Below are positions 1 through 57,615 of a DNA stretch of 64,000 nucleotides, piece after piece. The first letter of the stretch is position 1. The number at the start of each line of letters is the position of its first letter. A model generated the notes under the pieces. That model saw only the letters and a program-made list of their open reading frames with translations, was not told where the DNA came from and searched no databases. This stretch comes from Minisyncoccota bacterium (GTDB taxonomy: Bacteria > Patescibacteriota > Minisyncoccia > Phycocordibacterales > UBA5272), in assembly GCA_046350775.1 (NCBI GenBank), contig JAXLZS010000001.1, positions 223,930 through 287,929 on the forward strand, written 5' to 3'. The translations under genes and the position numbers were made by a program.

Positions 1-403
1 CATAATCGGCTCTTTTAATTTTATTAGCAATTGAGACAAGAGTATCATTTGGTGAAATTTTATAAATTCCAGCCTGCGCTACATTTTTTCCAAAAGAAAG
101 CTTCATGTAGATTTTAAAAACTAGTGAAGATTTTATTATTTGTTGATCTTTTAATTCGCTCGCGACATAATTTATACTGTCACCATTTTCAACTTGGAAA
201 AAACCATTTGGATCTTTTAGGTGTGTCACATCTACTTTTGAAAATAGATTTTTATACAAAAAAATACCAAAAAATATAATTATTATAAATAAAAAAATTC
301 TCATCTTGTTTTTTAAAATAGCTTCGAGAAGAGTCTTTTCATTATCATCTTCTTCTATCTTTTTTATAATAAAAAAGTTTTTAAAATCTTCTTTTTGTCC
401 CAT
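1..403 (-). CDS. mltG: Endolytic murein transglycosylase MltG/YceG-like, 5' part only; the gene runs off the window start
   Basis: Minus-strand translation from the ATG at 401-403 gives MGQKEDFKNFF...FLFIIIIFFGIFLY (N-terminal TM) followed by ...VENGDSINYVASELKDQQIIKSSLVFKIY...GIYKISPNDTLVSIANKI, the YceG N-terminal pattern. No stop occurs inside the window, so it is absent from the ORF track. Confidence 0.55.
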   Translation of the reverse strand, partial: MGQKEDFKNFFIIKKIEEDDNEKTLLEAILKNKMRIFLFIIIIFFGIFLYKNLFSKVDVTHLKDPNGFFQVENGDSINYVASELKDQQIIKSSLVFKIYMKLSFGKNVAQAGIYKISPNDTLVSIANKIKRADY

Positions 404-460
404 AATTTAGTATAAATATACCACAAAAACATAAAACAAAAAATTTATATTTTGTAAAAA

Positions 461-1993
461 TTATACAGGAAGATTTGAAGGAGAAGAAGATTTTGTAGAG
501 TCAATGCGAGGCAATGTAGGTGTAGCTGCCACCTCACCTGGGAAATGATAAAGTGTAGCCAGCTCTTCTACGTTTAATGTCATACCAATATTAGGAGTGA
601 CCGTTGGAGAAAATGGATGCAAGAATATATTATGCAATACAGAATATATTTTTTTAACATAGCTTGGATAATTAAAAAGAGCAACATCTAAAAATTCTTT
701 AGTCTTCCCGCCCATACCTTTTACATAGCTAAACATACCATCTCTACCAGTAAGATCACCATAAGCATTTTCTTTTCTCCAGGGAATCAATCTCTTCATG
801 GTATTTTGCCAAGGAAAGTCAAAAGGATCTGTAAGAGAGCCTGGAACATCAGGCTTAAAACCATTAAATCCATCTTCTGAAAAAGGTCTCATAATACCCA
901 TGACCATTGGTATTCTGCTAGGATCGAACTTTTCAGCCACATAAGTAGTTCTAATAATAGCAAAGACTCTTGGCTTACCCATCTTTTTTTGTATAGCTTC
1001 TAGACTCTTTTTTGCTTCTTCTTCTCGCTCGTTCATTGGTATGGGTTTTGATTCGGCTATATTTCTGGCGTATACAGCCTTTTCTGCTTTTTTTATGAGT
1101 TTACCATCTTTATCTTTTTGTTCTGGTATCATCTTCTCATTTCCAAATTCATCATCACCTATAGATTTTCCTTTCTCTTTTAAAGACCATTTTATTTTAA
1201 ATTTATCTGTCTCAAATTTTACAAGATCTGACAACTTTACTTTTGTTTTTTTACCATCTCTATCAAGTTCATAAACACCATCCCATTTTGCAGCATCTCT
1301 TATTATTATTTGATATACAAAATATTCGCCTTTTCCTATTGATCCCATCTGCTCTATAATATAAGTAAGGGGATCATGTTTATACATTTCCTTGGGATCT
1401 TTATCCAGACCCCAATCTTTATAGGTCTTTATAGGATACATATCACCTGAATATTTTAATTTCTCTAGCTTATGATCATCTCTTTTTTCTGTGTTACCCA
1501 CTGTCGCTTCACCAGATTTTGTTAAAAGCCATTCTGATGACCACGTACCAGGCATATTCGGATCATTATGAACTATCTTTGGAATTTTATCCATATAGTC
1601 AGGCACCTCTACTATCTCTACTGTAGGATATTGAGAATATATAGCAGCTTCAATTCTTGGTCTATATTTTGTTTCTATACGAATATAAAAATGCACCACT
1701 CCCTCAAGGGAGGCTATCTCTAATGCTGCCGTATTTGGAATATTACCAAGCCATTTCTCTTTATACCAAGTACCAAGACCGCCACCCTCTATCATACTTC
1801 GCAAAAATAATTCTGCAGCCTCTGGGCTTTTATTTATTTCTCTTGGAAGCTTTATTTCAAGTAACACCCATTTCAATCCTTTTTCAAAAGTCTGATTGGC
1901 ATTAAGCATCCAAAATTTCCATGCCCAAGCTATCAGCAAAGTAGTCATGCCACAATATATTAAAAACAAACCTATATCTATCAACAGTTGCAT
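461..1993 (-). CDS. Large hypothetical membrane-anchored protein (N-terminal TM helix, charged K/E/D-rich body)
   Basis: 510-aa ORF. The N-terminus LFLIYCGMTTLLIAWAWKFW is hydrophobic. I recognise no catalytic motif. Confidence 0.5.
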   Translation of the reverse strand: MQLLIDIGLFLIYCGMTTLLIAWAWKFWMLNANQTFEKGLKWVLLEIKLPREINKSPEAAELFLRSMIEGGGLGTWYKEKWLGNIPNTAALEIASLEGVVHFYIRIETKYRPRIEAAIYSQYPTVEIVEVPDYMDKIPKIVHNDPNMPGTWSSEWLLTKSGEATVGNTEKRDDHKLEKLKYSGDMYPIKTYKDWGLDKDPKEMYKHDPLTYIIEQMGSIGKGEYFVYQIIIRDAAKWDGVYELDRDGKKTKVKLSDLVKFETDKFKIKWSLKEKGKSIGDDEFGNEKMIPEQKDKDGKLIKKAEKAVYARNIAESKPIPMNEREEEAKKSLEAIQKKMGKPRVFAIIRTTYVAEKFDPSRIPMVMGIMRPFSEDGFNGFKPDVPGSLTDPFDFPWQNTMKRLIPWRKENAYGDLTGRDGMFSYVKGMGGKTKEFLDVALFNYPSYVKKIYSVLHNIFLHPFSPTVTPNIGMTLNVEELATLYHFPGEVAATPTLPRIDSTKSSSPSNLPV

Positions 1994-2059: not shown

Positions 2060-3103
2060 CTATTTTAGAGAATATTTTCCGTCCTTGTCTTTCTTAAATA
2101 GTTTTGAATCTTGAAGATTTATAATTACAGTATTTGGCTTTACCATTCTTTTTGCAAGTACCTTTTCTACTATTTCTTGCTTTGTAAGAGGCTTTCCACT
2201 TTCTTTGAGAGTCTCAGCTATAACATCTTTTACTACTCCAGCTGCATGTCCCCACTCCTTTAGTCCGTACATACCACGACCCACCAAGACAAATCTTTTA
2301 TCTTTGATTAATTCATTGTGACAAGTTGCGACATTAGTTTTCTTTTTAAATACCTTTGTGATCTCATTTGCTACATCTTTAAAGTGCATTGGCTTTCCAT
2401 TTTTTCTGACTACTAGATACGCATAATCTTTTACACCTCTCGCTTTGATATGCGGTGAAGTGACTTTACCCCACTCACCAAGATCATTTTTATCAATTAG
2501 TTTTGAAATAGATAAATATTTATGAATTGTATCTTTATTATTTTTATATTCATCTACAACCTGATCAAGATAAGATACAAATTTTTCAAGTATCTCACCT
2601 TCCACCAACAATTCTTCATCTGTGACTTCATTGTGAAGCTTATTAAGAGAGTCTTTAATATATCCAGAAAGTGAATCGTCGACACTCCAATGTGGATGAA
2701 AATCATCAGACTCTTTTATTTTTGTAAAATGACCACCAATGACGAGATATAAGTTTATATGATTTTGTACTACTTTGTCTTTTGAAATATGATTCATCAA
2801 AGTTTCTTCTCTGACTACTGATCCGAGTTTTTTAACTATATCTTTTAATTCGTCGAAGACGAAAAGATTTTCTCTGTATTCTGGAGATTTTTTAATTGTA
2901 GCTAGAGCAAAGTTTTCAATCTGACGAACTCTTTCACGAGTGATGTCATAATTTTTTCCAATGGCTTCGAGAGTCATTCTTTTCTCATTTTCAAGACCAT
3001 AGCGATTAGAAACAATGTCCTTCATACGAGGATTTAAAGCTGAAAGAAGTTTTTTAGAAACTTGCTTTGGCTTGAAAGATAAATTTGTTGATGTTTCTGT
3101 CAT
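2060..3103 (-). CDS. Protein with an N-terminal sigma-70 region-4-like HTH and a C-terminal domain of unknown function
   Basis: The N-terminal segment RYGLENEKRMTLEAIGKNYDITRERVRQIENFALATIKK matches the RpoD region-4 signature (TLEEVG..F.VTRERIRQIE). The remaining ~250 aa are not recognisable. Confidence 0.5.
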   Translation of the reverse strand: MTETSTNLSFKPKQVSKKLLSALNPRMKDIVSNRYGLENEKRMTLEAIGKNYDITRERVRQIENFALATIKKSPEYRENLFVFDELKDIVKKLGSVVREETLMNHISKDKVVQNHINLYLVIGGHFTKIKESDDFHPHWSVDDSLSGYIKDSLNKLHNEVTDEELLVEGEILEKFVSYLDQVVDEYKNNKDTIHKYLSISKLIDKNDLGEWGKVTSPHIKARGVKDYAYLVVRKNGKPMHFKDVANEITKVFKKKTNVATCHNELIKDKRFVLVGRGMYGLKEWGHAAGVVKDVIAETLKESGKPLTKQEIVEKVLAKRMVKPNTVIINLQDSKLFKKDKDGKYSLK

Positions 3104-3213
3104 AAATTTTTTTAATAATATTTATTTGTATTAAAGAGTCTCACAAAACTTATATTGTTTACTTATCTATACTACTACATCTTGACAAAAAAGTCAAAAC
3201 TATAAATCCACAA

Positions 3214-6200
3214 CTAAATGACTATATTTATAAGCCTTTTTGGAACGATTATGATTTTTTTGATTTGACTTTCATCGGTAACATATTTTTTATAAGTCTC
3301 TAAAGTCTTCACAAAATCTTTTATTTCTTCCTCATTTGCTTCTGACTTAATAATAAAAGTACCTCTAAATTTTCCAGAAATTTGCAAACTCATCTCTATT
3401 TCTTCTTTTATTATTTTTGATTCTTCATATATTGGCCAAGTCGATGTGTGAATAGAAGATTTATTTCCTAAAATATTTTGCCAGATTTCTTCACAGATAT
3501 GTACAGCGAAAGGCGCTAGGATTTGTATAAATTTTTCTAAAGTATTTTTAGAAATTTTATTTCCTTTTTTTATCTCCTCTTCAAAAGAGTTAAGACAAAT
3601 CATGAGTTGAGAGATAGCTGTATTAAATTTGAACTCTTCGATATCTTCACCTACTTTCTTGATAGTCTGATTAATCGCAAATTCTACTTCTTTTGAATCT
3701 TCTTTATTATTAAGATCAACTTTTTCAAAAATATTATAAACTCTTTCTAAAAATCTCGAGACTCCTGCTATACTATTTGTATTCCAAGAGATAGCTTTTT
3801 CAAATGGACCCATGAACATCTCATATGTACGCATCGCATCTGCTCCATACTCTCTTACCACATCATCTGGATTCACTACATTGCCATATCTCTTACTCAT
3901 CTTCTTTCCATCTTCTGCCATGATTAGGCCAACTGTTTGTAGTTTACTAAATGGCTCATCATAATTTACCAATCCTTTATCAAAAAGATATTTATGCCAA
4001 AAGCGAGCGTAGATTAAATGTCTTGTCGCATGCTCTGCTCCTCCGACATAAAAGTCTACAGGGCTCCAGTTTTTCTCAAGTTCTTTATCTGCAAAAATAT
4101 TTTCATTTTTTGGATCAATATATCTCAAATAATACCAAGAACTTCCCGCCCATTGCGGCATAGTATTTGTCTCTCTAAAGAATTTTTTTGCTTTTGGATC
4201 ATTTTGATCACAAGATTCGAATTCTCCTTCATCATTTATAAATCCATAAACTTCTACCCAATCTTTTATATTTGCGAGTGGAGACTCTCCATTATCTGTC
4301 GGCTCATAATTTTCTACATTCGGAAGGATCACAGGCAAATCTTTATCAGCAACTGCATAGCTTTTTCTATTACCATTTTCGTCTTCTGCAAACACAATTG
4401 GAAATGGCTCTCCCCAATATCTCTGCCGCGCAAATACCCAATCTTTTAATTTGTATTTACTTACAATTTTCCCTCCAACTTTTTCTGTGATTTTTATTCT
4501 CGCTTCTTCACTATTCATTCCATCAAAATCACCTGAATTAATTAATATTCCATTTTCTGTATATATAAAATCATTAATACAAAAATTCCAAATAAGTTTT
4601 TGATTAATATGAGTTAAGTAATCTAAAACATCGTCTTTTTCTATCCAAATAATTTCGTGTAAATCTCTTTCATCTTGATCAATATCTTGTCTTTCTTCAT
4701 CGATTAAATCAAAACACAAAGCACTAGCTATCATATATCTATTTATATTTTTGTGTGGAGCAAAAAACTTTGAATGCACTTCAAACATATCTCCATTTGA
4801 TTTTATATATTCAAAATTTTTATATCCTGTTTCTTCTATAATCTCTCTTTTGGCAGCCTCTAACAAACTTTCCACACCTTCTACTCCTCCAGTGATCATT
4901 GATTGCCATCCTTCTTTTTTAAATTTTATAAAAAGATATTTATTATTTTTTGGATTTCTTACAATTGCATGAATATTCCTCCTTCTCACAGTCTCTACAT
5001 TATCCCTTATTTTTAAATCTTCTTTATTTTCAAAATAAGGAGCGATGACTTGTTTAATCTTCACACCATACTTCTTTGCGAATTCATAATCTCTTTCATC
5101 ATGTGCTGGCACAGCCATGATCGCTCCAGTTCCATAATCACTCAAAATATAATTCGCAATATAAATTGGAACTTCTTCTCCATTCGCAGGATTGATAGCT
5201 TTGATACCTGTATCAATTCCTTCTTTCTCGAGCTTGCTCATATCAAAGTCTATAGCTCTCTCTTTTTCTTCTTTTTCGAGCTTCGCTATAAACTTTTTTA
5301 TTTCTTCGCTAGCATTCCAACCATCTTTAATCCACTCTTTTGCAAGAGTGTAAGATATAGCCATGAATGTACATCCATACAAAGTATCCGCACGAGTTGT
5401 AAAGATTTTTAATTTATCAAAACTTTGATTTAAAACTTCTATCTCTTCTTTTCCAAAAAAATGTGGGTCACTTGCCACAACGTCTATTAATTTTCCATTT
5501 AAAGATTTTGATAATTTTAGAGTATTTTCTTGAGGAACTAAATTGTCTTCAATATCTCTTAATAAAATAAATTCTTTTGAATTACTTTTAATTTTATTAA
5601 AATCAAAATTCCAATCAAAAGTATATTCAGGAAAATTTTCATCTATAAAATTATTTTCTAAATAACTTCCAACTAAAATAGTTTTTTTAATAGGATTTGA
5701 TAGTTTTTCTAAAACTTTTAGAGCTACAACACCCCCAAGACTATGTCCAATAATGACAGTATTATTATCAAATTTTATATTTTTTAAAATAAATTCTACC
5801 TGATCGTAAACTTTTGGGTCATTTGAATCTGGTAATTCTGGAATAACTACCAAGTGTCCTCTTTTTTCTAATTCGTCTTTAAGCCAAGGATAAAAACTGC
5901 TTTCAGGAGTATTATCAAAAGCATGTAAAATCACAAAATTTAATTTTTCATTTTTTATCTCAAAATCTATCTCACTTCCTTCACTTTTTCCAATCCAATT
6001 TCTCTGAAGCTCTTTTATATGAGGCTCCCAATTGAGTTTATCAAGATCATTTAAAAGTCTGTCAGCATAATCTGTAATACGTATAGTCCATTGTCTTAAT
6101 TTTTTCTTTTCTACAACTGTGCCACATCTCTCGCAAGCATTTCCGTCGAGATCTTCATTCGCAAGACCAGTTTTACAGCTGGGACACCAATTAATAGGAT

Positions 6201-6666
6201 CAAAAGATTCAAAAGCAAGTCCATCTTTATACATTTGCTTCCACATCCACTGAGTCCATTTATAATATTTTGGATCTGTTGTATTTATTTCTCTATCCCA
6301 ATCATAATTGAGACCAAGCATTTCAATTTGCTCTTTATATCTTTTTACATTTTTTTCTGTAGCAATATTTGGATTGATTTTATTTTTTATAGCAAATTGC
6401 TCTGCAGGAAGACCAAAGGCGTCCCAACCCATCGGGTGGAGTACATTGTATCCTTGCATCTTTTTCATTCTTGAGTAAACATCTGTCGCAATATATCCTT
6501 TAGGATGACCAACGTGAAGCCCTTCTCCGGATGGGTATGGGAACATGTCTAAAATGTAAAATTTCTTTTTATTGTCACTAAAATCATTATCAGTCTTATT
6601 GATCTGATTTTCATTCCAGTACTTGCGCCATTTTGTCTCTATATCACTATAATTTAATTTGCTCAT
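3214..6666 (-). CDS. leuS: Leucyl-tRNA synthetase carrying two inserted hydrolase domains (alpha/beta serine hydrolase and NUDIX)
   Basis: Class I signatures are present: PYPSGEGLHVGHPKGY (HIGH region), HPMGWDAFGLPAE, the editing-domain motifs TTRADTLYG and AVPAHDERDYEFAKKYG, and a KMSKRYGNVV (KMSKS) motif. At 1150 aa it is 250-300 aa longer than typical bacterial LeuS. Confidence 0.9.
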   Translation of the reverse strand: MSKLNYSDIETKWRKYWNENQINKTDNDFSDNKKKFYILDMFPYPSGEGLHVGHPKGYIATDVYSRMKKMQGYNVLHPMGWDAFGLPAEQFAIKNKINPNIATEKNVKRYKEQIEMLGLNYDWDREINTTDPKYYKWTQWMWKQMYKDGLAFESFDPINWCPSCKTGLANEDLDGNACERCGTVVEKKKLRQWTIRITDYADRLLNDLDKLNWEPHIKELQRNWIGKSEGSEIDFEIKNEKLNFVILHAFDNTPESSFYPWLKDELEKRGHLVVIPELPDSNDPKVYDQVEFILKNIKFDNNTVIIGHSLGGVVALKVLEKLSNPIKKTILVGSYLENNFIDENFPEYTFDWNFDFNKIKSNSKEFILLRDIEDNLVPQENTLKLSKSLNGKLIDVVASDPHFFGKEEIEVLNQSFDKLKIFTTRADTLYGCTFMAISYTLAKEWIKDGWNASEEIKKFIAKLEKEEKERAIDFDMSKLEKEGIDTGIKAINPANGEEVPIYIANYILSDYGTGAIMAVPAHDERDYEFAKKYGVKIKQVIAPYFENKEDLKIRDNVETVRRRNIHAIVRNPKNNKYLFIKFKKEGWQSMITGGVEGVESLLEAAKREIIEETGYKNFEYIKSNGDMFEVHSKFFAPHKNINRYMIASALCFDLIDEERQDIDQDERDLHEIIWIEKDDVLDYLTHINQKLIWNFCINDFIYTENGILINSGDFDGMNSEEARIKITEKVGGKIVSKYKLKDWVFARQRYWGEPFPIVFAEDENGNRKSYAVADKDLPVILPNVENYEPTDNGESPLANIKDWVEVYGFINDEGEFESCDQNDPKAKKFFRETNTMPQWAGSSWYYLRYIDPKNENIFADKELEKNWSPVDFYVGGAEHATRHLIYARFWHKYLFDKGLVNYDEPFSKLQTVGLIMAEDGKKMSKRYGNVVNPDDVVREYGADAMRTYEMFMGPFEKAISWNTNSIAGVSRFLERVYNIFEKVDLNNKEDSKEVEFAINQTIKKVGEDIEEFKFNTAISQLMICLNSFEEEIKKGNKISKNTLEKFIQILAPFAVHICEEIWQNILGNKSSIHTSTWPIYEESKIIKEEIEMSLQISGKFRGTFIIKSEANEEEIKDFVKTLETYKKYVTDESQIKKIIIVPKRLINIVI

Positions 6667-6812
6667 AATTTTTATAAAAGTATAGATATACTATATCAAA
6701 TAAAAGTATATTTAAAAAATAAGATTTTTATAATTTGACAATATATATTTAATATATTAATATAATAAAATTGTTCATTAAAACATTTCTTTAATCAGTA
6801 AATTTTTTTGAC

Positions 6813-7196
6813 ATGAAAAAAATCTTTTATGTTTTTTTATTAATTACAGGGCTTGCGTCATGCAAATCTGTCGGAGGTGGAAAATCTACAAATGTCTCTT
6901 CTGACATAGACAGCGGGTTTCTTATTTCCAAAAAACCTTTTGATTTTGATACTAAGTTCGGCTATGGCTTGTTTGTTATAAAAACAATAGATAGTTTGAC
7001 TAATAAATCAGAATACGAAGAGGTCTGGATATCTAGACAGACCTATGATGTATTGCCGGCTCCTGACGATTCTACAAAAATACTTATTTATTATGTTAGA
7101 GACATTGAAACTGGTCGTTATGATAATAAAGATCAGACTTCGTTTTGGGATTGTCAATTTAATTTTTGTAGCGGATACAGAGTCAATCGTAAATAG
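6813..7196 (+). CDS. Small lipoprotein (signal peptide with lipobox LASC)
   Basis: MKKIFYVFLLITGLASCKS: hydrophobic signal ending in a Cys lipobox. Confidence 0.5.
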   Translation: MKKIFYVFLLITGLASCKSVGGGKSTNVSSDIDSGFLISKKPFDFDTKFGYGLFVIKTIDSLTNKSEYEEVWISRQTYDVLPAPDDSTKILIYYVRDIETGRYDNKDQTSFWDCQFNFCSGYRVNRK

Positions 7197-7320
7197 ATGG
7201 GTCTATAGAAGTTTCTAAAGCAATCAATTTGATTGCTTTTTCTTTTTATTAAATTTTTATGATAAAATGACCTTGAATTAATTATCTAAATTTATAAAAC
7301 TTAATATCTAAAATAATAAT

Positions 7321-7692
7321 ATGAAAAATAACATGGAAAATTTTGCTCTCAAAGTCACAAAATGGATAGGATCTGTCTGGTCTCTTATTTTTCACACAAT
7401 AATATTTATATTTTTCTTTGTATTGATATATCTAGGATATAATGCTGAAAAAGTGATGCTATTTCTCACAACATTAGTATCTTTAGAAGCCATCTACCTC
7501 TCTCTTTTTATACAAATGACAGTCAACAGACATTCGGAAGACATTGCGGAGATTGCAGAAGATGTAGATGATATACAAGAAGATATAGATGATATACAAG
7601 AAGATATTGAAGAAATAAGTGAAGATGTAGAAGATATTCAAGAAGATATAGAGGAAATCAATGAGGAAGAAGATTCTAACAAGAAAAAATAA
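7321..7692 (+). CDS. Small membrane protein with a C-terminal acidic tandem repeat (EDIxDIQ)n
   Basis: Two predicted TM helices, then DIAEIAEDVDDIQEDIDDIQEDIEEISEDVEDIQEDIEEINEEEDSNKKK. The underlying DNA near 7549-7670 is a degenerate gaagatrtagatgatatacaa repeat. Confidence 0.5.
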   Translation: MKNNMENFALKVTKWIGSVWSLIFHTIIFIFFFVLIYLGYNAEKVMLFLTTLVSLEAIYLSLFIQMTVNRHSEDIAEIAEDVDDIQEDIDDIQEDIEEISEDVEDIQEDIEEINEEEDSNKKK

Positions 7693-7701
7693 AATAAAAA
7701 G

Positions 7702-8025
7702 CTATAAATCAAATTTTGAAAATACCCATTGTATCGCTCCATAAATCAGTCCAAATATAGCCGCTTGTAAAAATGTAAAATCTACAAAATTGGGAGTGAG
7801 TTTGCTAATTATCATCAAGAGTAAAATATTTAAAATTAAATGAAATAATCCCAGTGTTAGAAAATTTATTGGCCAAGTCAGAAAGTTTAATACCGGTTTT
7901 ACTACACCATTCACAATAGCTAAAAACAGTGTAAAAATTAATAAGGTCTTCCAACTAAAATAAGCCACACCCATTATTTTTACCGCTAAAACTACAGATA
8001 AAAAACTAAAAAGAAAATGAATCAT
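7702..8025 (-). CDS. DUF360 / phage-holin-4-like small 4-TM membrane protein
   Basis: 107 aa, four hydrophobic segments. The pattern LAIVNGVVKPVLNFLTWPINFLTLGLFHLILN resembles the YvlD/DUF360 family. Confidence 0.4.
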   Translation of the reverse strand: MIHFLFSFLSVVLAVKIMGVAYFSWKTLLIFTLFLAIVNGVVKPVLNFLTWPINFLTLGLFHLILNILLLMIISKLTPNFVDFTFLQAAIFGLIYGAIQWVFSKFDL

Positions 8026-8106
8026 ATATTTATTATTATATACAAATTATATCATGTATAGATATATTTTTCGTGTTATAATTTCCCTATAAAAAATACA
8101 TAAATT

Positions 8107-8901
8107 ATGAATAAAATTATAAAAGATTTCTTTAAAAATCAAGTCGCAGTAGCAATAATAATAGGAGCTTTCATTTTGGCTCTTGGTATGATCGGATACG
8201 CCCTCATAAATCAAAATAGCGGAAATAAAAGTGACGCTCTAAATGATATAGTCAACGCTGACAAAATCTTTACCGGTAAGGATTTTGAAGAAAATGAATA
8301 TATTTTAGGAAATGCTAAAAATAAAATTACAATAGTAGTCTATTCTGATTTTGAATGTCCATTTTGTAAAATTTTACAAGAGAATGCTATCCAAAAATTA
8401 CAAAAAGAATATTCGTTGAACAACAAAGATCTCTCTCAAGCTAAAATTGGTATAGTTTATAGACATTTTGCTCAGAGCTATCACGACAAAGCTCCAAGAG
8501 AGATCAATGCCTCACTCTGTACAAGAGAGCTTTATGGTCAGGCTAGCTATGAAAATTTTATAAACAGAATCTACAATATCACTCCAGCTAATAATGGTCT
8601 CGATCTTTTACTTTTACCAGAAATAGCTAGTTTTGCAGTCAATGAAGCTAAACAAAATGGAGAGACTATAAAAAAGGATTTTGATAAAGACGAATTGATG
8701 AGTTGTGTAAATAGCGAAATTTATAATCAGGAGTTTTTAGAAGATGCGCAAGATGCTATAAATATGGGACTCGATGGTACACCATATACTCTCATACTAT
8801 TTAATGATGGAGAGAAAAATATGATCATCAATAAAATCTCCGGCTCAAAAGATGCGTCTTATTTTGAAAATATAATTAATAAACTTTTGAAAATAAAATA
8901 A
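8107..8901 (+). CDS. Membrane-anchored DsbA-family thiol:disulfide oxidoreductase (CPFC active site)
   Basis: N-terminal TM, then VVYSDFECPFCK, a thioredoxin-fold CxxC motif in a DsbA/BdbD-like context. Confidence 0.7.
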   Translation: MNKIIKDFFKNQVAVAIIIGAFILALGMIGYALINQNSGNKSDALNDIVNADKIFTGKDFEENEYILGNAKNKITIVVYSDFECPFCKILQENAIQKLQKEYSLNNKDLSQAKIGIVYRHFAQSYHDKAPREINASLCTRELYGQASYENFINRIYNITPANNGLDLLLLPEIASFAVNEAKQNGETIKKDFDKDELMSCVNSEIYNQEFLEDAQDAINMGLDGTPYTLILFNDGEKNMIINKISGSKDASYFENIINKLLKIK

Positions 8902-8967
8902 AATACAAAATTTTTTTGAAGATATTTCGCGAAGCGGGGTTTCATTTGAAAAAATAATTTTGTATTT
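8901..8967. terminator. 12-bp perfect inverted repeat (aaatacaaaatt / aattttgtattt) enclosing a GC-rich inner hairpin; bidirectional terminator between convergent genes
   Basis: The inverted repeat is read directly from the sequence. It sits between the 3' ends of 8107..8901 (+) and 8974..9291 (-). Confidence 0.5.
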
Positions 8968-8973
8968 TATGTT

Positions 8974-9291
8974 TTATATTCCTAATTCTAATTTTAATTC
9001 TTCGCTTGGCTCCCAAGGCTCATCGAAATCTAATTCTACTTGTGCTTCACCAAAATTAAGAGTATTAACTTCTGTCTCTACTTGAGAAATAATATCATCA
9101 GCAAATGGACACATAATACTTGTGAGGGTCATTACTACTTTTACATATTCATAGACTTTGAAATCTTCGAGATATTCCCCTAATTCTATCTTTCTAATTA
9201 GTCCGAGCTTTACAATATCAATACCGAGCTCTGGATCTATGACTTTTTTGAGAGCTTCTGTGATTTGTAATTTTATTTTTTCTTCATTCAT
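8974..9291 (-). CDS. sufT: SufT / DUF59 (MIP18-family) Fe-S cluster assembly protein
   Basis: 105 aa with the DUF59 pattern ...VIDPELGIDIVKLGLI...VVMTLTSIMCPFADDI (conserved Cys). It lies directly downstream of sufC. Confidence 0.65.
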   Translation of the reverse strand: MNEEKIKLQITEALKKVIDPELGIDIVKLGLIRKIELGEYLEDFKVYEYVKVVMTLTSIMCPFADDIISQVETEVNTLNFGEAQVELDFDEPWEPSEELKLELGI

Positions 9292-9293
9292 AA

Positions 9294-9995
9294 TTAATTT
9301 ACAATATTTAAAATTCCATCTTTCATCTCAAAATGTTTATCTATTTTTACTAGATCAGCAATATCTTCTCTGTGAGAAATAATACAAAAAGCTGTCTCAT
9401 AATTTTTATTAAAATCATTTATAATTTTAAATACTTTTTTAATCGCTGCTTTATCTACACCACTATCAATCTCGTCCATAAAGACAAATTTTGGCTTTAG
9501 AGCAAAAAGATGTAGCATTTCTGCCTGCTTCTTTTCTCCTCCAGAAAATCCAATATTAAGATCTCTTTTTAAGAACTCTTCATCGATACTATACTTTTTA
9601 CAAAAATCTAAAATTTCTTTATTAAAATCTATTACTGATAGATTATTATTTTCGTCTACATTTTTATAAGATCTATAGAGAAACTGTAAAAGATTTACAC
9701 CTTCTATTTCTGGTACATGTTGGAGTGATAGATAGAGACCATTTTTTGCTATTTCAAAAGTTTTAAGATTTGTGAGATCTATATTTTCATTTTCTTTTTC
9801 TAAAATTATTTTTCCATCTACTATCTCATAATTTGGATGTTTAAAAATAGCTGACAAAAGAGAAGACTTTCCAGATCCGTTTTCACCAGTGATTGATACT
9901 ATTTCTCCTTTTTTGAGATCAAAAGTAGCATCAGAAATAATTTCTTCACCATTTCCCACTATTTTAATTTTTAGATTTTGTATTTTTAATTGCAT
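9294..9995 (-). CDS. sufC: SufC-like Fe-S cluster assembly ABC ATPase
   Basis: Walker [14 protein letters not shown] signature FSGGEKKQAEM, Walker B FVFMDEIDSGVD, at a size typical of SufC. It is flanked by sufU and sufT. Confidence 0.75.
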   Translation of the reverse strand: MQLKIQNLKIKIVGNGEEIISDATFDLKKGEIVSITGENGSGKSSLLSAIFKHPNYEIVDGKIILEKENENIDLTNLKTFEIAKNGLYLSLQHVPEIEGVNLLQFLYRSYKNVDENNNLSVIDFNKEILDFCKKYSIDEEFLKRDLNIGFSGGEKKQAEMLHLFALKPKFVFMDEIDSGVDKAAIKKVFKIINDFNKNYETAFCIISHREDIADLVKIDKHFEMKDGILNIVN

Positions 9996-10000
9996 ATTTT

Positions 10001-10399
10001 TTAATTTTTATTATCTATATTTTTGAGTGCATTTTCGAGACATTTGTAAGAAAGAAGTGCACAATTGACTCTACTTGGAGAGATTTTGACTCCTAGCAAT
10101 TCATATATGACTGAAGGAGACCAGAGCTTTAAATCTTGGAGACCTATTCTATCATTTTTAATTTTTTCTGTCATCATACTCATCGCAGCCTGAGAAATGG
10201 CGCATCCAGTACCTGTCCAAGTGACATTTTTTATTTTTCCATTATCCATATCTAAAAATATCTCTGCTCTGTCTCCACAATCTACATTTTCTCCTATTCC
10301 ACAAGTCTCGCACACTTCAAAACCTCTCTCGACTTTGTTTTTCGGATTACGATAATGCTCCAATATGTTTTCTTCGTATAAAAAATCTAAATTATTCAT
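10001..10399 (-). CDS. sufU: SufU/IscU-type Fe-S scaffold or sulfur-acceptor protein
   Basis: Conserved Cys motifs: CGDRAEIFL, then GTGCAISQAAMSMMTE, which parallels B. subtilis SufU GEGCSISMASASMMT. Confidence 0.75.
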   Translation of the reverse strand: MNNLDFLYEENILEHYRNPKNKVERGFEVCETCGIGENVDCGDRAEIFLDMDNGKIKNVTWTGTGCAISQAAMSMMTEKIKNDRIGLQDLKLWSPSVIYELLGVKISPSRVNCALLSYKCLENALKNIDNKN

Positions 10400-10517
10400 A
10401 TATAAAAAATAACATAAAAAATAATTTTATTAGTATTGACATTTTATGAGATATTTAATAGTATAACTGTAGCAAAATTGCACCTTCACAATATTTCAAA
10501 CCAATAAAATTTTAACA

Positions 10518-11573
10518 ATGAGTAATCAACTAAAAATTGACGAGACAATACTTAATACAGTGATTGATCTGGTCGTAAAAAAAGACCAAAAACAAGCAAT
10601 CATTTTTTTAAACACTTTTACACTTACTGAAAAGGATTTAATTTTTACACTTCTTCTCGAGAAAAGAAAATACTACATTGAGAATGGTAATTATGAAAAA
10701 GCCGAAAAACTTTCGGAGTTTACAGGATCCGAACTCAGTGACAGTGAAAAAGAAAGGCTTATACAAAAAAGGATTGTCGACGGCATGTATCATCTTGAAG
10801 ATGTGGTACAAAAAATCAAAGAGTATTTTCCCGAAAAGGACAATGAATTTATCCTGCAGTTTTTTATCACCCAAAAACATTGGTACACAGCTTTGAGATT
10901 CACTAAAGATTCTGCCTTATTACTACCTGAATTTTTTGTAAGAGAACAATTACAGGTAGTAATAAAGAATGGCTATTTGTCTGATTTGTTATCAGTATTG
11001 CATTATATTGAAAGCGAATTAGGAGAAATTCGAAAATTAACAGCCAAAGAAAAAAACGTTTTTTTAGAAAATGTTAAAATTTTTTCTTTGGAAGATTTTC
11101 TAAATCTGGAAATTTTTCTCAACAAAAAATTAGATCCTAAATTACTCCTAACAAAAAGAATGCAAGCTGTAAAAGATGGCCAGTATGATCAAGCTGTGAT
11201 TTTATCTAAAATAACTAATAAAAAGATAAAGCCGGCTGAGCTGGAATTCATGTTAGACAAAATACTTGATAACTACTACAGTTTTTCTGATAACAGCAGA
11301 AAAGATGAGAGGAAAAGATTGGAAAACCAGCTTCCTCTAAATCTGGTCAAGCAAAAAAAGGCAACCTTTTTAAAAGCTAATATTACTGATGGCAACCTGG
11401 CAGGAGCAAAATTTTTAGCAGCCGAACTGGGAAGACAATTAAAAGTAGATGAGTTTAAAGAGATCCTCAGATATTTCATTTTTACTAAAAATGTAGATAT
11501 GGTCTCTAATATCATTAAAGAAATGACAAAAATTTATCCTGAAGAGGCTGCTAAGCTAGAAATATTAAGTTAG
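10518..11573 (+). CDS. Hypothetical alpha-helical protein on the opposite strand inside the suf cluster
   Basis: 351-aa ORF with no recognisable motif. Confidence 0.4.
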   Translation: MSNQLKIDETILNTVIDLVVKKDQKQAIIFLNTFTLTEKDLIFTLLLEKRKYYIENGNYEKAEKLSEFTGSELSDSEKERLIQKRIVDGMYHLEDVVQKIKEYFPEKDNEFILQFFITQKHWYTALRFTKDSALLLPEFFVREQLQVVIKNGYLSDLLSVLHYIESELGEIRKLTAKEKNVFLENVKIFSLEDFLNLEIFLNKKLDPKLLLTKRMQAVKDGQYDQAVILSKITNKKIKPAELEFMLDKILDNYYSFSDNSRKDERKRLENQLPLNLVKQKKATFLKANITDGNLAGAKFLAAELGRQLKVDEFKEILRYFIFTKNVDMVSNIIKEMTKIYPEEAAKLEILS

Positions 11574-11621
11574 AAAAATTAAAAAGAAAGACCGTTAAGA
11601 ATCGTGAAAACGATTCTTTTT

Positions 11622-12899
11622 TTATTTTCTAAAAATTTCTTTAACTTTTTCTAAAGCTCTAAATACTTCATTCACATCTTTCTCGTCATTATAAATATGA
11701 AAAGAAACTCTGGTTAGCCCACCAGGCACACCAAGATAAGTCATCAGCGGCTCAGCACAATGATGTCCTGCTCGCACAGATATATGATATCTGTTAAAAA
11801 TCTCAGCCACATCATGTGGATGCACTTCCTTTTTATTTACTAAAATTTGAAATGAGACTATTCCTACATTGTTTTCACTTTTACCAGAAAAGATTTTTAT
11901 TTCAAATTTATCTTTATATATCTCATTCATCTTTTCAGCTTTTTCAAAAAAGCTAGCTACTAATTTTTGAGAATGTTTTAAAATATTTTCTTTTGACATT
12001 TCTCTTAGGAGATTTATAGCTTCTCCAGCTCCGATCACTCCAGCTATATTGGCAGTGCCAGCTTCAAAGACTTTTATATCACTTCGCAATTCAAAATCTT
12101 CTTTTGAGACATGTGAGACTATGCCACCGCCAATAATAGTCGGCTTCATATTTCTTGAAAAATCTCTCTTGATAAACAGAGCTCCGACTCCTGTCGGGCC
12201 AAAAGCTTTGTGGAGTGAAAAATATCCAACATCAATATAATTTCTTAAATTATTCAGATCAATCTCCATGTGTCCAAAGCTACTTGTCATATCAGAGATG
12301 ACAAGTACATTTTTATTGATATTTTTTATTTCAGAAATTATTTCTTTTATATTATTTATACTTCCAAGCACGTTTGAAGTGAGACAAATAGAAACTATTT
12401 TTGTCTTTTCTGATACAAGATTCTTAATATTTGAAATATCAAGATTAAAATTTTCATCTAATTCTAAAAATTTTAATTTTAGTTTTTTATTTTTAGCTAA
12501 TTTTTGAAGTGGAAGTAATGATGAATGATGTTCAGCTATAGTAGTCAAAATCTCATCACCTTCATTTAGAAAATGGAATTCGTCGTCATGAAGAGAAATC
12601 ATATCTAATAGCATGTTGCTGGCACTAGTAGACCCACTAGTCCAAATAATCTCATCATCTTGACAATTGAGATATTTTGCTAAAATTTTTCTAGATTCAT
12701 CAAATCTGCCAGTAGCTTTTTGAGAAATATTAGAAATAGCCCTATCAATATTTGATCGATAATTAAAATAATATTCATCCATCTTTTTTACAACAGAATC
12801 TGGTGTGAGTGATGAAGCGGCTGAGTCTAAATAAATTAGATCAGCTTCATATTCTTTTTTATAATTTTCAAAAATAGAAAATTTATTTTTAATATCCAT
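11622..12899 (-). CDS. sufS: Cysteine desulfurase, class V aminotransferase (SufS-like)
   Basis: PLP-lysine region FSLHKAFGPTGVGALFIKRD parallels SGHKLYGPTGIGVLY, and the C-terminus has the RAGHHCAEPLM motif with a catalytic Cys. Confidence 0.8.
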   Translation of the reverse strand: MDIKNKFSIFENYKKEYEADLIYLDSAASSLTPDSVVKKMDEYYFNYRSNIDRAISNISQKATGRFDESRKILAKYLNCQDDEIIWTSGSTSASNMLLDMISLHDDEFHFLNEGDEILTTIAEHHSSLLPLQKLAKNKKLKLKFLELDENFNLDISNIKNLVSEKTKIVSICLTSNVLGSINNIKEIISEIKNINKNVLVISDMTSSFGHMEIDLNNLRNYIDVGYFSLHKAFGPTGVGALFIKRDFSRNMKPTIIGGGIVSHVSKEDFELRSDIKVFEAGTANIAGVIGAGEAINLLREMSKENILKHSQKLVASFFEKAEKMNEIYKDKFEIKIFSGKSENNVGIVSFQILVNKKEVHPHDVAEIFNRYHISVRAGHHCAEPLMTYLGVPGGLTRVSFHIYNDEKDVNEVFRALEKVKEIFRK

Positions 12900-57122: not shown

Positions 57123-57521
57123 TTACAAATCTGTTTTAATCTCTTTTAATATAAAACTAAGATTGACTGGGAGTTTTTCTTCTGCTTCTTCAATTGAAAA
57201 CCAACGTTTCTCAATATCACTTTCTCCATCATCTACTTTTCTAATAACTTTAGAAAGAAACATAAAAATTCTTATAGCTTCACCAGACTCTTTATGAGTA
57301 TATGTAATATTGGAAAGTTCTCCTAAGAGTTCAATCTCATAACCTGTCTCTTCTAAAATTTCCCTTCTAGCTGTATATTCTTTTGTTTCGCCTTCTTCCA
57401 TGTGACCTTTTGGAAAAGACCAATTATTTTGATCTGGGATTGTAACTAAAAGAATTTTTCCTTCATTTAGCACAATACTTCCAGCTTTCATGGTCTCGTT
57501 ATTTTCATTTTTTATTTTCAT
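57123..57521 (-). CDS. NUDIX hydrolase
   Basis: The Nudix box reads FPKGHMEEGETKEYTARREILEETGYE. The track ORF start at 57605 would overlap the tRNA, so I moved the start to an internal Met. Confidence 0.7.
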   Translation of the reverse strand: MKIKNENNETMKAGSIVLNEGKILLVTIPDQNNWSFPKGHMEEGETKEYTARREILEETGYEIELLGELSNITYTHKESGEAIRIFMFLSKVIRKVDDGESDIEKRWFSIEEAEEKLPVNLSFILKEIKTDL

Positions 57522-57528
57522 ATTTTTG

Positions 57529-57615
57529 CGGAGAATGTGAGATTCGAACTCACGGAACCAATAAAGGTTCGGCGGTTTAGTAAACCGCTGGTTTAAACCA
57601 CTCACCCAATTCTCC
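57529..57615 (-). tRNA. Type-II (long variable arm) tRNA with an atypical anticodon loop UUACUAA; identity uncertain (apparent anticodon ACU; Ser/Leu-like architecture)
   Basis: The reverse complement reads GGAGAAT-TG-GGT..ACC-A-GCGGT-TTACTAA-ACCGC-CGAACCTTTATTGGTTCC-GTGAG-TTCGAAT-CTCAC-ATTCTCC-G. The acceptor, T-arm and variable arm are canonical; the anticodon loop is not. Confidence 0.6.

Follow-up and report, generated by a model that had tools for sequence, protein, structure and literature searches.

Why would a leucyl-tRNA synthetase (LeuRS), an essential enzyme of translation, carry two further hydrolase-type domains inside its own editing domain? The question is raised by leuS, an open reading frame (ORF) of 1150 codons in the 64,000-nucleotide stretch analysed here (the window), which belongs to contig JAXLZS010000001.1 of a Minisyncoccota bacterium. 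Its CP1 editing domain is interrupted at two points, by a YdeN/RBBP9-type serine hydrolase domain (insert 1) and by a Nudix domain (insert 2). LeuRS with nested modules of this kind is a real, widespread and apparently undescribed architecture.

Two hydrolase-type domains nested in the LeuRS editing domain

Judged from its sequence, the window protein serves a member of the Patescibacteria (Paceibacterota) as its housekeeping LeuRS; it is of the bacterial type, and its synthetic and CP1 editing sites are intact. It scores 919 bits against the bacterial LeuRS equivalog TIGR00396 (cut-off 548), and its nearest solved relatives are the LeuRS of Thermus thermophilus and Escherichia coli (E ~1e-170). 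The alignment to the former (1h3n) consists of four colinear blocks, in which residues 1-241, 418-542, 701-918 and 922-1150 correspond to T. thermophilus residues 1-240, 242-363, 376-580 and 637-876, respectively, and Pfam Anticodon_1 matches residues 998-1113. In line with the original prediction, made from the letters of this DNA, that all LeuRS landmarks are present, we found the class I signature motifs HIGH and KMSKS, the zinc motifs and, as features of CP1 editing, the threonine-rich peptide and the conserved aspartate. Across 85 relatives the editing residues T424 and D526 as well as HIGH and KMSKS (K922-R926) are invariant, inserts present or absent, and the zinc motifs are invariant or nearly so. 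Family, domain order and the HIGH/KMSKS, zinc and editing motifs are therefore common to the window protein and the T. thermophilus and E. coli enzymes (1h3n/2byt, 4aq7, and 2ajg for CP1), whereas the leucine-specific domain of the latter two is absent from it, and domains of catalytic type, 176 and 158 residues long, stand where the CP1 loops of T. thermophilus hold about 1 and 12 residues.

Insert 1 takes the place of the first β-hairpin turn of CP1 and ends five residues before the TTRADT peptide, while insert 2 begins 17 residues past Asp526, in the loop after the helix of the editing aspartate. The span of the isolated E. coli CP1 construct 2ajg takes in both insertion points, and 174 of its 186 modelled residues superpose at 2.0 Å on our full-length AlphaFold2 model (mean predicted local distance difference test score, pLDDT, 89.8; predicted template modelling score, pTM, 0.77; both inserts mostly 86-96). 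Because both points lie within CP1, which is itself inserted in the Rossmann fold, both inserts are second-order insertions. The earlier placement of the Nudix domain inside the editing domain was thus correct, but confining this placement to the Nudix domain was not, as the hydrolase lies inside CP1 as well. The boundaries obtained from the 1h3n alignment (Table 1) are within a few codons of those first proposed (nucleotides ~5407..5955 for insert 1 and ~4567..5034 for insert 2), and the Nudix box, expected at ~4819..4890, was found there as an exact match. The inserts are predicted to fold at pLDDT ~90-96 and match solved folds, which rules out that the extra length is low-complexity linker, one of the two ways in which the original prediction could have failed.

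Insert 2 matches Pfam NUDIX with 45.1 bits (gathering threshold, GA, 21.1; E=1.3e-11), and its Nudix box GGVEGVESLLEAAKREIIEETGY conforms exactly to GX5EX7REUXEEXGU. Modelled alone with 32 homologous inserts in AlphaFold2, it reached a pLDDT of 95.3, and Foldseek paired this model, which has the α/β/α Nudix fold, at probability 1.00 with many Nudix structures (template modelling score, TM, 0.6-0.7). The strict box is kept in 74 of 79 inserts at the same site, the remaining five being near-misses. In a profile search of the PDB the best match was the Nudix effector AvrM14 (E=9e-9), ahead of a lupin diadenosine tetraphosphate (Ap4A) hydrolase (4e-8) and then Dcp2, NudB and the Aquifex Ap4A hydrolase; among the neighbours found by Foldseek are several Ap4A hydrolases (CT771 and those of Aquifex, human and Mycobacterium), RppH, the Ap6A hydrolase Ndx1 and MutT1. 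With the Ap4A hydrolases of lupin, human, Aquifex (aq_158) and Chlamydia (CT771), RppH and AvrM14 the insert shares a single-domain Nudix fold of ~150 residues and the canonical box. It differs from them in its sequence (14-20% identity), in its location in or next to aminoacyl-tRNA synthetase (aaRS) genes and in a signature of its own, made up of residues that are invariant or near-invariant in a 33-insert alignment: R562, K639-x2-N642-R643, E666 and W674 (protein numbering).

Insert 1 matches the Pfam families Abhydrolase_5 (31.8 bits, GA 27) and Abhydrolase_1 (27.5 bits, GA 25.8). Against Ser_hydrolase (PF06821) it scores 21.3 bits, 0.7 below the GA of 22; the homologous insert of another LeuRS (P0079) attains 30.5 bits, and a precomputed PF06821 match exists for many embedded homologues. 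The best solved relatives in phmmer were YdeN of Bacillus subtilis (E=4.5e-9, over the whole length) and human RBBP9 (E=3e-8), the very family proposed for this block at the outset. Ser309, Asp375 and His402 fall on the triad positions of both proteins in the alignment and are conserved in embedded homologues, and the insert has the full-length similarity and compact fold of solved PF06821 members. Among 31 LeuRS-embedded hydrolase homologues, Gly307, Ser309 and Gly311 are kept in all, His248 in 30 and His402 in 29. YdeN (1uxo) and RBBP9 (2qs9) are stand-alone proteins, whereas insert 1, at 23% identity, is an internal domain of an aaRS. There are also stand-alone YdeN-type homologues with 33-40% identity to insert 1, which may represent the source of the insert; at least one carries a patescibacterial annotation (Nomurabacteria). 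Near one of two such stand-alone genes that we examined lies a Nudix gene, itself no more than a distant relative.

Distribution and exchange of the modules

Large gaps between hmmsearch domains, mapped onto a hidden Markov model of the core built from 26 insert-less relatives, defined five insertion sites in patescibacterial LeuRS (A to E; Table 1). Nudix domains were seen at all five, at times in tandem and with up to three copies per LeuRS, whereas the YdeN-type hydrolase was located at B or D, in one case as a tandem pair. The same sites also hold ASCH, S-adenosylmethionine (SAM) methyltransferase, HAD phosphatase-like and DUF559/Vsr-like endonuclease domains, so that at least six families are represented overall. 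Among the 120 closest clusters at 90% identity, 28 are free of inserts, one or more Nudix domains are present in 82, and 30 possess the hydrolase; 27 of these 30 have both (a raw count that ignores kinship). LeuRS proteins carry 0 to 4 modules, in 28 distinct architectures within this sample, and the exact architecture of the window protein recurs in 16 clusters (~50% identity).

When genomes representing species were scanned with the peptide REIxEETGY and a 9-sequence alignment, at least 161 loci encoding relatives of insert 2 were obtained. The best 80 loci were examined individually, and in 74 of them the Nudix domain lies within leuS. The lineages concerned include the Taylor-, Kaiser-, Moran-, Magasanik-, Buchanan-, Berkel-, Adler-, Peri- and Gracilibacteria; a few metagenome-assembled genomes (MAGs) bear the labels of other phyla or of archaea, which we take as unverified. 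In the leuS genes of a peribacterial and a gracilibacterial locus (L074, L075), both of which carry a Nudix insert and the second also a hydrolase, we observed in-frame TGA codons that appear to break the genes under translation table 11, consistent with UGA recoding (code 25). The public labels of such LeuRS proteins are inconsistent and range from "class I tRNA ligase family protein" to "alpha/beta fold hydrolase". Architecture and distribution, as read from these genomes, firmly indicate that modular LeuRS insertion is lineage-wide in Patescibacteria. The original prediction had allowed that insertions common to a whole lineage would make the feature conserved rather than novel, and this is what the survey of relatives showed: the architecture recurs and is not peculiar to this gene.

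Close relatives of the window protein differ strongly in what they carry. The cores of three orthologues (P0005, P0024 and P0010) share 81-93% identity with its own; P0005, an insert-less protein of 829 residues, retains 84% nucleotide identity in the N-terminal core segment. Their gene order (suf genes, DsbA-like, holin-like, DUF1003 in one of the three, leuS, Sigma70_r4/HARE-HTH) is syntenic with the window. In P0002 the core is equally close and the site-C Nudix is merely 32% identical, and P0004 has Nudix domains at B and E instead. Conversely, P0028 has a core only 58-74% identical, yet its site-C Nudix is 69% identical. In a comparison of 3081 pairs, the identity of the core was only weakly correlated with that of the site-C Nudix (Spearman 0.20, from approximate, alignment-based identities), and of the 338 pairs whose cores share 70% identity or more, 114 have Nudix domains that are at most 40% identical (likewise approximate). 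Near-identical syntenic cores with no or different inserts imply that exchange of the modules does not depend on the LeuRS that hosts them, and the insert-less close orthologues imply that they are dispensable for LeuRS function and hence accessory. We considered whether an adjacent gene supplies the Nudix in trans to the insert-less relatives; no such gene is present at the three closest syntenic loci, but the arrangement does occur in another lineage (see below). In the relatives compared, the cassette junctions are clean substitutions of 8-10-residue loops. Nudix copies cluster by insertion site across proteins and not within a protein, which indicates that the insertion at each site goes back to an old event and not to continual copying within the gene, and which led us to reject intragenic duplication as the origin of the extra copies.

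The Nudix subfamily of insert 2 is small and, although mostly found in LeuRS, not confined to it. A phmmer search of 1.84 billion representatives returned 391 relatives at E<=1e-3, and the best 150 of them comprise 104 LeuRS or LeuRS fragments and ~30 stand-alone proteins of 160-200 residues; a word-indexed protein search with insert 2 as query returned nothing. One relative (P0177) is a class II archaeal-type prolyl-tRNA synthetase (ProRS) that carries the LeuRS-type Nudix between its anticodon-binding and C-terminal domains. The neighbourhoods of five stand-alone members were examined. One precedes a Nudix-bearing proS by two genes (L010), and another is situated 2 nt upstream of a Nudix-bearing leuS. 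In a split arrangement, a 161-residue stand-alone Nudix protein is encoded directly before a leuS which has no large insert over the 746 residues present on its contig (cut by the contig end), a length that spans all five sites. This subfamily is thus joined to aaRSs in at least three ways, at five LeuRS sites, in ProRS and as an operon neighbour, and although circumstantial, these lines of evidence, all from comparison of genes and gene order, converge. The window itself also contains a stand-alone Nudix ORF at 57123..57605 (-), of 160 residues, with a NUDIX score of 66.5 bits, 26% identity to insert 2 and no adjacent aaRS.

Candidate functions and competing accounts

What could such modules contribute to a synthetase? 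We tentatively favour, with a little under half of our confidence, the view that they are optional accessory hydrolases coupled to aaRS chemistry and kept for this reason on or next to aaRSs. The two nested domains would act alongside the canonical LeuRS activity, on substrates that arise from aaRS chemistry; as the editing residues are invariant with or without inserts, the inserts would add to canonical editing and not replace it. aaRSs are the classical source of Ap4A, which forms when ATP attacks the aminoacyl-adenylate. Because of this activity, a tethered hydrolase of diadenosine polyphosphates (ApnA) or of nucleoside-diphosphate-X (NDP-X) compounds would be the most economical proposal, and it would also explain why the Nudix domain is common to class I and class II aaRSs. 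The likeliest Nudix substrates would accordingly be adenylate-derived by-products (Ap4A/ApnA) or a related NDP-X compound. For the serine hydrolase, cleavage of an α-aminoacyl ester or amide would be the likeliest activity, and the domain may thereby deacylate aminoacyl-nucleotides or, as a second activity of this kind, the 3' ends of mis-acylated tRNA. To our knowledge, RBBP9 is the sole biochemically characterised member of the YdeN/RBBP9 family. It is an aminopeptidase that removes N-terminal residues and needs a free α-amine (PMC8866121), and it is also credited with the activation of valacyclovir, a nucleoside-analogue prodrug esterified with valine (Shenoy et al. 2020, as cited in PMC7730578). 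Support for a coupling of the Nudix module to aaRSs is moderate, the link of the hydrolase to the synthetase is weaker, and the substrates named for both modules are guesses. It is tempting to speculate further that in Patescibacteria aaRSs, mainly LeuRS but also ProRS, serve as platforms with a swappable quality-control kit, in which a dedicated Nudix subfamily would act on ApnA alarmones or mis-activated aminoacyl-adenylates and the hydrolase would deacylate mis-charged tRNA or aminoacyl-nucleotides, as a third layer in cis beyond CP1 that is exchanged in the form of in-frame cassettes; this extension we consider rather improbable.

A number of observations weigh against a coupling of the modules to aaRS chemistry. 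The likeness of insert 2 to ApnA hydrolases (TM 0.6-0.7, 14-20% identity) is generic, since minimal Nudix domains look alike, and the glutamate that anchors the α-amine in RBBP9 (Glu108) is not conserved in insert 1. One stand-alone Nudix member lies beside another Nudix gene and has no aaRS neighbour, and another follows fpg, the gene for Fapy-DNA glycosylase (Table 1), which hints that some relatives are MutT-like nucleotide sanitisers. The association of the subfamily with aaRSs could stem from one old insertion into LeuRS, with the stand-alone and ProRS copies derived from leuS. Neither of the two stand-alone YdeN-type homologues examined is linked to leuS. The three syntenic orthologues with cores so close to that of the window protein have no insert and no adjacent Nudix gene, and unrelated domains (ASCH, HAD, methyltransferase, DUF559 endonuclease) share the same sites, as would be expected if these were merely permissive. 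Finally, the G+C content at third codon positions (GC3) is 9.7% in insert 1 and 15.8% in insert 2, versus 23-30% in the three LeuRS core segments and a median of 22.4% for 39 long ORFs of the window; values as low as that of insert 1 are reached in 2 of 469 sliding 170-codon windows across the 64 kb. This low GC3 of both inserts suggests a foreign origin or else relaxed constraint or codon selection.

Much of this evidence is what would be expected from passive hitch-hiking, the main rival, in which small housekeeping enzymes without any link to LeuRS (nucleotide sanitisers, esterases, ASCH, HAD and others) became fused into an essential, constitutive gene at permissive loops, in the tiny and regulation-poor genomes of Patescibacteria. 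The presence of at least six unrelated families at five sites would fit, as would the range from none to four modules in proteins of up to 1722 residues, the insert-less syntenic orthologues, the weak correlation between core and Nudix identities, the low GC3 of the inserts and, for plain MutT-like sanitation, the relative adjacent to fpg. On the other hand, the Nudix subfamily is nearly confined to positions in or beside aaRS genes, and its occurrence at five LeuRS sites, in the unrelated ProRS and as an operon partner is not predicted by the permissiveness of CP1 loops alone. The frequent co-occurrence of the hydrolase with the Nudix domain (27/30, kinship ignored) argues in the same direction. 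We consider hitch-hiking less likely than not, while regarding it as a serious competitor.

Could the modules instead, in the sense of the original prediction, take part in proofreading within the editing pocket itself, the Nudix domain acting on mis-activated aminoacyl-adenylates and the serine hydrolase on mis-acylated tRNA, with substrates channelled through CP1? Their nesting in CP1, 5 and 17 residues from editing-site residues, their conserved catalytic motifs and the activity of the RBBP9 family on α-aminoacyl groups would be in accordance with such a role. However, the same Nudix subfamily also occupies the non-CP1 sites A, D and E, is found in a ProRS that lacks CP1 and exists as a separate protein; pocket placement is thus not required, which fits the looser coupling to aaRS chemistry proposed above. 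In addition, the canonical editing residues are fully kept, and aminoacyl-adenylates are acyl-phosphate anhydrides, unlike the nucleoside-diphosphate-X linkage of typical Nudix substrates. A separate HIT-family gene also lies 7 kb from leuS. Proteins of the HIT/Hint family hydrolyse aminoacyl-adenylates and ApnA, so the genome may already possess this activity in trans. Altogether, we regard proofreading in the pocket as improbable.

It appears more doubtful still that the inserts are mobile or selfish cassettes that home to leuS sites in the manner of inteins or homing-endonuclease genes and persist near-neutrally. The idea draws on the DUF559/Vsr-like endonuclease at site B of P0028, on near-identical cores with none, different or 32%-identical cassettes at one site, and on the difference in GC3 between inserts (9.7%/15.8%) and core (23-30%). 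However, a Pfam scan of the window protein gave no match to intein/Hint families at E<=1, and the junction residues (NFVILH...QSFD followed by KLK in insert 1, PYFENK...CINDF followed by IYT in insert 2) want the Cys/Ser/Thr and His-Asn residues of splicing, so that an intein was rejected. Transposon-like insertion with target duplication was likewise rejected, as no direct or inverted repeats flank the four insert junctions. Moreover, clear purifying selection acts on the catalytic residues of the hydrolase domains, and the site-wise clustering of the Nudix copies speaks for old vertical inheritance.

A role in assembly, in which the Nudix domains would act mainly in protein-protein contacts and link LeuRS with ProRS or with stand-alone Nudix subunits in a multi-synthetase complex, seems to us no less doubtful than homing. 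Nudix domains commonly dimerise, and the same subfamily is found in LeuRS, in ProRS and in separate proteins whose genes neighbour those of the two synthetases; in archaea, LeuRS is documented to form a complex with lysyl-tRNA synthetase and ProRS (PMC2094089). A scaffold, however, would not need the strict conservation of a catalytic Nudix box, and the class II Lys/Asp/Asn-type aaRS of the window has no insert. Lastly, an artefact, be it a chimeric assembly (the second way in which the original prediction could have failed) or a mis-called ORF, has a negligible chance of being true: the unusual length and the composition shift within the gene are all that could be held in its favour, and against it stand the identical public record P0001 (a Candidatus Paceibacterota MAG), found on 4 contigs of up to 614 kb with a continuous frame, the recurrence of the architecture in the 16 further clusters (~50% identity) and in species-representative genomes, and the confident full-length model.

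Genomic setting and significance

The gene order around leuS is largely common to the insert-less leuS orthologues and to one Nudix-bearing leuS, and the HIT gene is also present in a syntenic locus (L094). The 494-residue class II aaRS of the window is free of inserted domains, so that in this genome at least this synthetase is exempt from the insertions. Table 1 collects these genes together with the features of leuS and of the other loci.

Table 1. Features of leuS, the insertion sites, selected relatives and neighbouring genes (unless a record is named, nucleotides refer to the window and residues to the window LeuRS)
Feature	Record	Residues	Nucleotides	Strand	Remarks
leuS ORF		1-1150	3214..6666	-	1150 aa plus stop (3214..3216); unbroken reading frame
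N-terminal catalytic core		1-241	5944..6666	-	
HIGH motif HVGH		51-54	6505..6516	-	
Zinc motifs CPSC and CERC		161-164; 178-181	within 5944..6666	-	
Insert 1 (site B)		242-417	5416..5943	-	YdeN/RBBP9-type α/β serine hydrolase; substitutes ~1 T. thermophilus residue
Nucleophile elbow GHSLGG		307-312	5731..5748	-	Ser309 at 5740..5742
Asp375		375	5542..5544	-	predicted catalytic residue, insert 1
His402		402	5461..5463	-	predicted catalytic residue, insert 1
His248		248		-	predicted catalytic residue, oxyanion region, insert 1
Central CP1 editing segment		418-542	5041..5415	-	
Threonine-rich peptide TTRADT		423-428	5383..5400	-	
AHDERDYEF		521-529	5080..5106	-	holds universal editing Asp526
Insert 2 (site C)		543-700	4567..5040	-	Nudix domain, aaRS-associated subfamily; substitutes 12-residue CP1 surface loop
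Nudix box		593-615	4822..4890	-	
LeuRS C-terminal half		701-1150	3217..4566	-	second Rossmann half, anticodon-binding and C-terminal domains
KMSKS-type motif KMSKR		922-926	3889..3903	-	
Site A		after core ~211			outside CP1
Site B		core ~243-248			hydrolase site of the window LeuRS
Site C		core ~378			Nudix site of the window LeuRS
Site D		core ~444			outside CP1
Site E		core ~500			outside CP1
DUF559/Vsr-like endonuclease	P0028	212-374			site B; 111 bits
SAM methyltransferase	P0021	617-798			
HAD-type hydrolase	P0069	982-1187			
ASCH	P0015	241-355			
Insert without Pfam match	P0101	803-943			site D
Largest LeuRS found (Taylorbacteria)	L013	1-1722	3265..8433		two Nudix at A, hydrolase at B, Nudix at C, unidentified 216-aa insert at E
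Nudix-bearing class II archaeal-type ProRS	L005; L010	643 aa	2906..4837; 2762..4693		Nudix between anticodon-binding and C-terminal domains
Split Nudix-leuS arrangement	L007; L006		492..3217; 3451..5303		Nudix gene ends 2 nt before leuS start
Stand-alone Nudix with fpg	L011; L012		4016..5513; 110..1607		Nudix gene 4 nt after fpg
510-aa protein			461..1993		downstream of leuS; no Pfam match
Sigma70_r4 + HARE-HTH protein			2060..3103		downstream of leuS
DUF1003-like, holin_4_2-like, DsbA-like, FeS-assembly, SufC-like, NifU, SufS-like			7321..12899		upstream of leuS; identities by synteny
HIT-family protein		130 aa	13886..14278	-	Pfam HIT 73.9 bits, DcpS_C; ~7 kb from leuS
Class II Lys/Asp/Asn-type aaRS		494 aa	49408..50892	-	

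Literature searches retrieved no description of LeuRS with Nudix or serine-hydrolase insertions, or of modular insertions in aaRSs of the candidate phyla radiation, in agreement with the earlier statement that this is not a described feature of LeuS. The gain of extra domains as such is shared with other aaRSs, such as the isoleucyl-tRNA synthetase-GNAT type (NF040702, which appears in the NCBIfam match list of the window protein via the shared class I core) and those with eukaryotic add-ons; compared with these, the additions in the window LeuRS are internal, nested, of hydrolase type, multiple and interchangeable among close relatives. AlaX, YbaK/ProX, D-Tyr-tRNA deacylase, HIT/Hint proteins and ApaH clean up errors or by-products of aaRSs, but their resemblance to the modules described here is solely one of functional analogy, as they have other folds and are separate, trans-acting proteins. 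Bacterial aaRSs are usually viewed as architecturally frozen. A 2026 survey (PMC13114784) classed the LeuRS editing domain (PF13603) as insertion-exclusive, since none of the 213 cases was a host event; contrary to this, CP1 of the window LeuRS does host insertions.

We thus find an essential aaRS that bears in-frame modules, up to five of them in proteins of up to 1722 residues, inside a domain which is itself inserted, with modules that turn over between near-identical hosts. This amounts to a natural experiment on what a proofreading domain can accommodate, shows how new activities can be recruited to the translation apparatus, and bears on the packaging of accessory functions in genome-reduced symbionts. 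If the modules do act on aaRS products, they would reveal that translational quality control or Ap4A homeostasis has a further, new layer acting in cis, and would provide a first physiological substrate class for the bacterial YdeN family and for an uncharacterised Nudix subfamily.

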